IMG/VR virus record: IMGVR_UViG_2671180460_000008
Coordinates: 1-4,331 of that record
DNA from: a virus
Taxonomy: Duplodnaviria > Heunggongvirae > Uroviricota > Caudoviricetes
Direction: 5' to 3' (one strand)
DNA: 4,331 nt
This document shows, piece after piece, positions 470 to 1,563 of the stretch. The position numbers and the translations under genes were made by a program. Within the stretch, counting starts at the first letter, position 1, and each line of letters begins with the position of its first letter. The notes under the pieces are model-generated. The model was not told the origin of the DNA and searched no databases. It worked only from the letters and a program-made list of their open reading frames with translations.

Positions 470-480
470 CAGGCATTACA

Positions 481-507
481 GCAGCCCTTCACACACTGAG
501 GGGCTGC
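481..507. other. Inverted repeat able to form a hairpin (7-bp GC-rich stem, 13-nt loop)
   Basis: GCAGCCC at 481-487 is the exact reverse complement of GGGCTGC at 501-507. There is no U-tract after it on the + strand, so it is not a canonical intrinsic terminator for the 35-aa ORF. Confidence 0.3.
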
Positions 508-517
508 GATAATGTGA

Positions 518-560
518 GAAATAAAAAACCGGTCACAGGGAGCAGCTACACAGAACCGGC
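518..560 (-). terminator. Weak candidate Rho-independent terminator on the minus strand (repeat element copy A)
   Basis: On the minus strand a short stem (CCGGT ... ACCGG, with a long loop) is followed immediately by TTTTTTATTTC. The + strand reads GAAATAAAAAACCGGTCACAGGG at 518-540. The stem is only 5 bp, so this is weak. Confidence 0.2.
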
Positions 561-650
561 TGGCGAAGACCGCCAATATCACCCGGGCATCGGTACAACA
601 TACTTATGACAATAGACGGTATTGATGTAAATGCAATGTTATGCATCGAC

Positions 651-700
651 GAAAATAAAAAACCGGCAGGGGAAATCCATTGAAGATTTGCCGGTGGCAA
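651..700 (-). terminator. Candidate Rho-independent terminator on the minus strand (repeat element copy B)
   Basis: Minus strand reads CACCGGCAAATCTTCAATGGATTTCCCCTGCCGGTTTTTTATTTTCG: an outer stem CCGGCA / TGCCGG with inner AAATC / GATTT pairing, followed by a T6AT4 tract. The + strand carries the same A-rich CCGG core as copy A (GAAAATAAAAAACCGGCAGGGG at 651-670). Confidence 0.3.
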
Positions 701-938: not shown

Positions 939-951
939 TAACCAATTGATT
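939..951 (-). promoter_or_regulatory. IHF binding site candidate (I1-like)
   Basis: The reverse complement of 939-951 is AATCAATTGGTTA, a full match to the IHF consensus WATCAANNNNTTR. It lies between the two inverted repeat arms, as I1 lies between R3 and R2 in lambda. Confidence 0.45.
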
Positions 952-1053: not shown

Positions 1054-1563
1054 ATGGCAACGCAGGCGGAGGTAGCCGAGCATCTTGGTATAACTGAACG
1101 CTGGTTGCGGGATCTTCAGAAGCACCCGGGAGCGCCAAAAAATCGAAAGCGTGGTGAATACGATATTGATGCCTGGCGATATTTTTATATTTCATACCTT
1201 AAACGCAAAGGAAGAAGCGATTCTGATGACGATGGAAATAGCGATTACGAAGAAAAATTACTTATCGCCAGATGGAAATTGACTGAAGAACAGGCAATAG
1301 CACAGCAATTAAAAAATCAGGTAACCGAAGGCAAGCTCATTGATTCTGGGTTCTGCGTTTTCGCTCTCAGCAAACTGGCGATGGCATTGTCCAGTACGCT
1401 TGATTCCATTCCTTTATCCATGCAGCGACAGTTCCCGGATTTAACCCCGCGTCATATCGATTATCTGAAAACCCTTATCGCAAAAGGCGCGAATCAGTGT
1501 GCGCGGACAGGGGATAAATTGCCGGAGTTACTCGATGAATATATCCGAACTACAGCTGAATAA
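1054..1563 (+). CDS. nu1: Terminase small subunit (lambda gpNu1 family)
   Basis: 169-aa ORF directly downstream of cos. The C-terminal half (GFCVFALSKLAMALSSTLDSIPLSMQRQFPDLTPRHIDYLK ... LPELLDEYI) aligns with the lambda Nu1 C-terminus as I recall it (AFCTFVLSRIAGEIASILDGLPLSVQRRFPELENRHVDFLK ... IPGLLSEYI). The N-terminus (TQAEVAEHLGITERWLRDL) looks like a helix-turn-helix but diverges from lambda. The 3' end overlaps the large-subunit start by 29 nt, as in lambda. SD AGAGGG at 1045-1050. Confidence 0.9.
   Translation: MATQAEVAEHLGITERWLRDLQKHPGAPKNRKRGEYDIDAWRYFYISYLKRKGRSDSDDDGNSDYEEKLLIARWKLTEEQAIAQQLKNQVTEGKLIDSGFCVFALSKLAMALSSTLDSIPLSMQRQFPDLTPRHIDYLKTLIAKGANQCARTGDKLPELLDEYIRTTAE

Follow-up and report, generated by a model that had tools for sequence, protein, structure and literature searches.

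Short RNAs transcribed leftward, against the late genes, have been described in lambdoid prophages. AgvB and AsxR are Hfq-bound sRNAs of this kind, encoded in rightward late operons (PMC4104026), and PasB and PasC were found leftward in such operons in a '(> <) >' arrangement (PMC8550237 Table S6). PasB and PasC of EPEC E2348/69 are 79–83 nt long and lie in rightward late/structural operons, and PasB has a wide distribution among non-EHEC strains, ETEC included (PMC8550237; bioRxiv 10.64898/2026.05.13.724894). The size of these precedents for leftward Hfq-bound prophage sRNAs ranges from 50 to 85 nt. Rho-independent terminators also bound the 'morons' of lambdoid phages (Juhala et al., 2000, cited in PMC4104026). 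Morons are inherited as independent units edged by a hairpin and a U-tract, lie between late genes, are present or absent among mosaic relatives and are oriented opposite to, or independently of, the late operon.

In our study, a window of 4,331 nucleotides (the whole stretch of DNA that was analysed) from a lambda-like E. coli prophage was found to take in the last part of the lysis genes as well as cos and the terminase genes (Table 1). The nearest full-length relative of the window was the prophage of E. coli PapRG-04-4, with 98.6% identity. Two copies of an A-rich element were present between the lysis cassette and cosQ/cosN. The reading that we favour, with our confidence about evenly divided, is that each element is the 3′ end of a small non-coding unit transcribed leftward: copy 2 would end the constant unit B, and copy 1 the optional unit A. 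They would be the ends of two small unannotated ncRNA genes, because copy 2 has the form of a terminator and copy 1 lies at the edge of an optional cassette. Both units would stand tail-to-tail against the last rightward accessory gene.

Table 1. Features of the window, with positions counted from its first nucleotide.
Feature	Position	Strand	Remark
M15 endolysin, C-terminus	1–84
GC-rich hairpin	474–514	+	Ends the left (rightward-transcribed) accessory module; neighbour of copy 1, outside the repeat element
Terminator-like element, copy 1	518–559	−	Weak hairpin 529–559, then U6AU3C at 528–518
Repeat copy 1 (AAATAAAAAACCGG)	519–532	strand-neutral	Minus strand: stem base CCGG and U6AU3
Cassette-specific 120 nt	533–652	−	With one 14-mer, the optional 134-bp cassette (unit A)
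Candidate unit A promoter	609–636	−	TTGCAT (636–631), 16-nt spacer, TATTGT (614–609)
Predicted intrinsic terminator, copy 2	652–699	−	Interrupted 12-bp stem and U6AU4
Repeat copy 2 (AAATAAAAAACCGG)	653–666	strand-neutral	Minus strand: CCGG, then U6AU4
Rest of the unit B module	700–830	−	Conserved, non-coding; right boundary ~830, before cosQ
Candidate unit B promoter	719–746	−	TTGCAC (746–741), 16-nt spacer, TAAAGT (724–719)
cosQ-like GGGTCCT	839–845	+
Putative cosN cohesive end	~866–879	+
cosB	911–984	strand-neutral	24-nt inverted repeats 918–941 / 961–984 (ACTTCCGGTTTT...) flank an IHF consensus
Nu1-family small terminase	1054–1563		Preceded by small ORFs
gpA large terminase, gpW, lambda-family portal	beyond 1563		In that order

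Several properties of the described sRNAs recur at this locus. Like AgvB, AsxR and EcOnc03 (RF02702, RF02703; PMC4104026), the predicted RNA of unit B would be about 60 nt long with a long U tail; a constant 3′ terminator module is followed upstream by a variable 5′ part (15–20 nt in the known sRNAs), and the unit would be convergent with a rightward late-operon gene of a lambdoid prophage. However, the sequence and the hairpin found here are unrelated to those of AgvB and AsxR, and a search of Rfam 15 (cmscan, both strands, E up to 1) gave no family match. The AgvB/AsxR site lies 3′ of PR′, in the PR′/Q-stx-holin region, whereas the element here lies between the lysis genes and cos. Identity with the AgvB/AsxR family was rejected on these three grounds: no Rfam match, different published sequences and a location not downstream of PR′. 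The predicted units share with PasB and PasC the leftward orientation in rightward late operons and the '(> <) >' arrangement. Unlike them, PasB is flanked by the tail genes I and J; the Pas sequences are unrelated to the window units, and the PasB probe sequence was absent from the window, so identity with the Pas sRNAs was rejected too. The likeness to AgvB/AsxR and to PasB/PasC is a functional analogy only, as between short leftward Hfq-type sRNAs convergent with late genes, and not a membership. Compared with the morons, the optional unit here is only 134 bp long, holds no protein gene and has a putative promoter. The elements look like an ordinary kind of prophage feature, with RNAs that are predicted.

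The sequence AAATAAAAAACCGG was found as an exact 14-nt direct repeat, 134 nt from start to start. With up to 2 mismatches allowed, the window contained three matches against 0.07 expected, and none of 200 shuffles reached three. The original prediction had described a duplicated A-rich CCGG element which reads on the minus strand as CCGG followed by a U-tract; both parts were confirmed, as the exact 14-mer was present twice, far above chance. The 14-nt identity is the U-tract and stem base common to the putative units A and B. A U tail was absent from the plus strand of both hairpins, and any termination would therefore be strand-specific. A terminator scan of the window reported neither copy, because their loops or bulge exceed the limits of the scan.

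The stem-loop of copy 2 (663–694) was found to contain a GC-rich base of 7 bp, a 5-nt bulge, an apical stem of 5 bp and a 5-nt loop, and the stem could be extended by an A-U pair (662/695). On the minus strand the hairpin was preceded by the U-rich stretch CUUUUGCCA and followed by a tail (662–652) in which all but one of the 11 nt are U. Copy 2 folded with an energy of −13.5 kcal/mol (z = −2.0; 7 of 200 shuffles were equally good). Its discriminant d, a d'Aubenton-Carafa-type hairpin/tail score calculated with modern energy parameters, was +8 to +13. Copy 2 has the two properties by which intrinsic terminators are tested, a stable GC-containing stem-loop and a U-rich tract directly after the stem, and it is most likely a functional leftward intrinsic terminator. 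The hairpin of copy 1 (CCGGUUC...GACCGG) had a stem of 5–6 bp and a loop of about 19 nt; its energy was −9.2 kcal/mol (z = −0.17), and 93 of 200 shuffles were equally good. A hairpin-forming segment, terminator-like on the minus strand and pointing away from cos, had been proposed for both copies. The fold energies bore this out well for copy 2 but only weakly for copy 1, which folded like shuffled sequence.

When related loci were anchored outside the hairpin, positions 655–699 contained 1–3 variable positions and positions 700–830 contained dozens. The least variable blocks of the region under the same anchoring were 510–580 and 655–700, and the copy-2 hairpin was the most conserved. Among nine variant sequences of hairpin 2, 99.1% of cells were paired, that is, all stem cells except one; the sole stem change was from A-U to G-U, and the other changes were in the loop. 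No compensatory double changes were seen in these nine variants; since the stems barely vary, covariation support is absent, and the structure is therefore compatible with the variants rather than proven by them. A later variant scan was anchored on the 3′ arm of hairpin 2, so that the apparent invariance of the hairpin in it is partly inflated. In relatives copy 2 was nearly invariant, and single-copy alleles carried only one of the two repeats. Recombination, or a role at the DNA level, might also account for such strong conservation next to a mosaic junction.

Wider searches with the hairpin gave little. Five hairpin 16-mers were without a match in any paper of the full-text literature, and the literature on sRNAs and transcription start sites of ETEC H10407 yielded nothing usable. 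The pattern AAAAACCGGCAGGGG-N12-20-TGCCGG gave 35 matches in species-representative genomes, all in unrelated taxa, with none in the enterobacterial representatives. We take these 35 matches as probable chance occurrences of generic terminators; with no enterobacterial match, the scan was uninformative on the element.

The 14-mer was found to be the exact boundary of a 134-bp cassette which is present or absent among related prophages. In single-copy alleles 134 bp were missing, and the sequence left of copy 1 was fused to that right of copy 2 with nothing else between them but the one repeat; their junction contained the 474–514 hairpin, TGAG(A/G)AATAAAAAACCGG and then directly CAGGGGAAATCC. 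Examples were ATCC 43896, the phages cdtI and phi458, STEC306 and E24377A. The upstream context of hairpin 2 in 139 IMG/VR occurrences was the big hairpin in 53 (single-copy) and the cassette in 86 (two-copy), with no others. Of 5426 complete E. coli genomes, 243 carried unit B; the cassette was found in 126 of them, always at full length. Its genomic context was always the same, and the median number of places per genome was 1. It contained a 22-codon minus-strand ORF in which, by our own reading of the alignment, 8 of 8 substitutions were non-synonymous.

Two origins of the cassette were tried and rejected. A MITE or IS-like insertion with target-site duplication was not supported, as no inverted repeats were found in 505–680, no dispersal was seen and there was a single context. 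An ancient tandem duplication of a unit of ~134 bp was also rejected, as collinear similarity beyond the 14-mer was not significant. In the comparison of 533–652 with 667–800, a score at least as high came from 69 of the 1000 shuffles and from 4 of the 108 natural controls; when just the first 50 nt were compared, this was so for 114 of 5000 shuffles, but for 165 of 1190 natural controls. Of the duplication scar that had been suggested, the exact bounding of the 134-bp cassette by the 14-mer stands, and tandem duplication of the whole unit is statistically unsupported.

The 14-mer that bounds the polymorphism exactly also suggests another reading of copy 1, a credible one to which we give appreciable weight without favouring it: the cassette may have been gained or lost at a 14-nt microhomology, and copy 1 would then be a by-product of recombination, a duplicated U-tract and CCGG without function, while copy 2 may still terminate. 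The near-zero z of copy 1 agrees with this, as do its discriminants, which by the same score were negative in the two commonest alleles (−5 in the window and −1.8 in the commonest). The commonest allele carried C556G and T561C, and C556G abolished the original 5′ arm. A functionless copy does not explain, however, why several independent alleles restore or strengthen the pairing beside the U-tract. An 8-nt loop deletion raised d to +16, and alleles with GUGGCCGG or GUGGUCGG re-paired through a shifted CCGGCC arm, so that pairing was strengthened in three alleles. Nor does it explain the 3′ 60 nt of unit A, which were far more conserved than its 5′ part. In our preferred reading, copy 1 is the counterpart of copy 2, a weak end to the optional 134-bp cassette.

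A position weight matrix (PWM) scan of the minus strand gave moderate scores of 6.5–8.9 bits overall, and its two best upstream candidates were those of units A and B, each at a fixed distance from its copy. At 8.6 bits, the unit B candidate came close to the 99.99th percentile of window scores, and the unit A candidate, at 7.8 bits, exceeded the 99.9th. A separate promoter scan of positions 1–1200 reported no site. Nearly all of 25 unit B variants contained TTG(C/A)A(C/T)-N16-TA(A/C)(A/G)GT, with about half of the spacer positions varying. The divergent allele of E. coli E423 retained TTGCTT-17-TAGGTT, spaced 25 nt from the hairpin where the window has 24 nt. The unit A hexamers were kept in 23 variants, with TATTGT or TATTAT as the −10 hexamer and a varying spacer. 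The predicted start of unit B at ~712 would give an RNA of ~60 nt ending at copy 2, and that of unit A at ~602 an RNA of ~80–85 nt ending at copy 1. In ETEC H10407 (NC_017633.1), which has the two-copy allele with the element on the plus strand of the record, the minus-strand RNAs would extend from ~1307826 to ~1307767 (unit B) and from ~1307716 to ~1307634 (unit A); in the single-copy E24377A (NC_009801.1), the RNA of unit B would extend from ~1282948 to ~1282888. The 5′ 30 nt of the predicted unit A RNA were variable among the 23 variants, and the 3′ 60 nt were conserved. The original prediction had named several possible roles for the elements; among these, the 3′ ends of small minus-strand RNAs are favoured because promoter-like hexamers are conserved upstream of each copy.

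The same hexamers bear on an explanation that we consider unlikely, namely that the elements are insulator or backstop terminators without a dedicated RNA gene. Antisense transcripts straying leftward out of cos, the packaging genes or regions further on would be halted there and so kept from the lysis and accessory genes. In favour of this, copy 2 makes a good terminator on the minus strand, and the separate promoter scan found no strong promoter. The tail-to-tail placement with the plus-strand 474–514 hairpin would also fit a boundary of convergent units. However, insulation leaves unexplained the TTGCAC-N16-TAAAGT-like hexamers kept at a fixed 24–25 nt from the hairpin amid diverging sequence, as well as a second unit with the same layout in the cassette, and no source promoter for the antisense transcription was identified. 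As a separate observation, the E423 locus (L209, 2560–2700) contained a strongly diverged unit B body, with hairpin 2, the hexamers, cosQ and the window-type cos retained; the body of unit B therefore evolves fast and its ends stay fixed.

The unit B region showed no coding signal. Its variable sites were without codon periodicity (21/17/20), and pN/pS was 0.60, 0.87 and 0.78 in the three plus-strand frames. ORFs are annotated here in some records (phi458 Orf24, phiSTEC1575 gene 56), but one allele class contained in-frame stops and a 2-nt indel shifted the frames. A small protein ORF or type I toxin was rejected, as no conserved frame was under purifying selection. The right boundary of unit B was set near 830, the point at which ParB-type loci that lack cos cease to be homologous.

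These annotated ORFs, together with the fold of the plus strand across 470–710 (z = −3.9), would be expected if the elements belonged to the late transcript, as a plus-strand RNA element for processing, stability or translational control, or to a small protein gene overlapping the hairpins. We hold this to be quite improbable: the z-score came mainly from the 474–514 hairpin, the plus-strand folds of the two copies alone were unremarkable (z = −0.06 and −1.25), and the annotated frames were unconserved, with pN/pS of 0.6–0.9 in every frame and no codon periodicity. The 474–514 hairpin itself had an energy of −26.8 kcal/mol (z = −6.8) and lay immediately 3′ of the stop codon that ends the small ORF before it. 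Neither strand had a U-tract following the hairpin. Homology to phiP27 and O169:H41-type prophage loci ended at 514, after GATAATG, with unrelated sequence beyond. By this comparison the hairpin is the constant right end of the left mosaic module. Rather than terminating transcription, it may stabilise the 3′ end of an mRNA.

The core AAAACCGG was found four times in the window against 0.28 expected. Copy 2 (653–677) matched the left arm of cosB (911–935, inverted) at 21 of 25 nt, and none of 1000 shuffles matched. The claim that the element shares its core with the cosB repeats was thus upheld, and the similarity proved longer than claimed. Across 1.5 Mb of related loci, no other cosB type showed it. 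By our own reading, the elements do not keep the flanking bases (CCA..TCCGG) that the related cosB type conserves. If the likeness between copy 2 and cosB is due to homology, cosB would have been borrowed from the element and not the reverse.

On the strength of the CCGGTTTT core common with the cosB repeats, the elements might be sites on the cosQ side at which the small terminase, or some other packaging protein, binds the DNA. A related Nu1 type also contained CCGGTTT in its repeats, and the R sites of lambda cosB, which are bound by gpNu1, are likewise short repeated motifs near cos. Such a role, put forward earlier as extra small-terminase sites, is very improbable and was not supported by the relatives. 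The elements were unchanged beside at least 10 unrelated cosB/Nu1 types, including the lambda type with its R sites, and in one ParB-type context without cos; therefore they do not co-vary with Nu1 specificity and do not depend on this terminase, and terminase binding is unlikely. Unlike the lambda R sites, they lie on the wrong side of cosN, ~170–350 bp to its left and not between cosN and Nu1.

The cosB of the window differed from that of lambda, which has the order R3-I1-R2-R1, in being an inverted repeat that flanks an IHF consensus. This consensus (939–951, minus strand) was the only match in the window. The sequence CGCTATTTATGAAAATTTT at 890–908 matched the lambda-type cos of phiSTEC1575-Stx2k, and the genome record of phage cdtI ended at a position aligned to ~867; the cohesive end was placed because of these two observations. 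The left end of lambda is also matched by CGCTATTTATGAAAATTTT at 890–908. The Pfam Nu1 profile matched only residues 71–150 of the small terminase, and the N-terminal DNA-binding region of ~70 residues was unmatched, which would fit the unusual cosB repeats.

In the preferred reading, RNA polymerase would start unit B from the sigma-70-like candidate promoter and transcribe ~24 nt, the interrupted 12-bp hairpin would then form at 694–663, and release in the U6AU4 tract would give the short RNA, of which copy 2 is plausibly the 3′ end. The 3′ half of this RNA, with its U-rich stretch, GC-based hairpin and long U tail, would resemble the Hfq-binding module of enterobacterial sRNAs. The order of CUUUUGCCA, hairpin and U6AU4 fits the layout of Hfq-type sRNAs (a U-rich stretch, a hairpin and at least 6 U), and the CUUU(U/C) stretch of unit B was retained across variants. 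Unit A, where present, would be started from its own candidate promoter and would end in the weak hairpin and the same U-tract, with the 14-nt identity marking the point at which prophages with the cassette part from those without it. If the RNAs have a function, they might act in cis, antisense to the late transcript, or regulate in trans.

A wider and more speculative proposal, which we put forward tentatively and think rather unlikely to hold as a whole, is that the cos-proximal module represents an unannotated family of short prophage sRNAs (~60 and ~80–85 nt) whose 3′ terminator modules are constant and whose 5′ ends vary. Lysogens would express them leftward, and ~4–5% of E. coli, including ETEC H10407 and E24377A, would carry them; they could act as cis-antisense on the late transcript crossing cos and/or as Hfq-dependent trans regulators, the 14-nt terminator core doubling as a recombination joint for swapping mini-genes. 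If transcribed, the locus would be a second conserved sRNA site of lambdoid prophages, beside cos, in addition to the known site downstream of PR′, and the cassette would be an unusually small 'moron' of 134 bp with its terminator core as the exchange joint. The cos-proximal site occurs in clinically relevant ETEC, APEC and STEC strains. If not transcribed, it would be a tidy terminator at a mosaic junction with a short-homology indel, of use for annotation and unsurprising otherwise.

The left part of the window contained two further ORFs without a Pfam match. A 39-codon ORF (99–218) just past the endolysin encoded a hydrophobic peptide (…KWALVAILVSFLFILIIQISRVFC), whose product could be a small membrane or lysis accessory protein. 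The other ORF, of 35 codons (362–469), was preceded by a strong AGGAG Shine-Dalgarno sequence, and its 3′ part was homologous to the ends of longer 'hypothetical protein' genes, for example one of 130 aa in SEC470/H10407. The lysis-region DNA of the record 'Actinobacillus phage vB_Apl-pPE4' (PP818812.1) was 93% identical to this E. coli prophage, and its host attribution is odd. The records NZ_CP007594.1 ('SEC470') and NC_017633.1 (ETEC H10407) were both 5153435 long with equal match coordinates, and they therefore appear to be one genome under two names.
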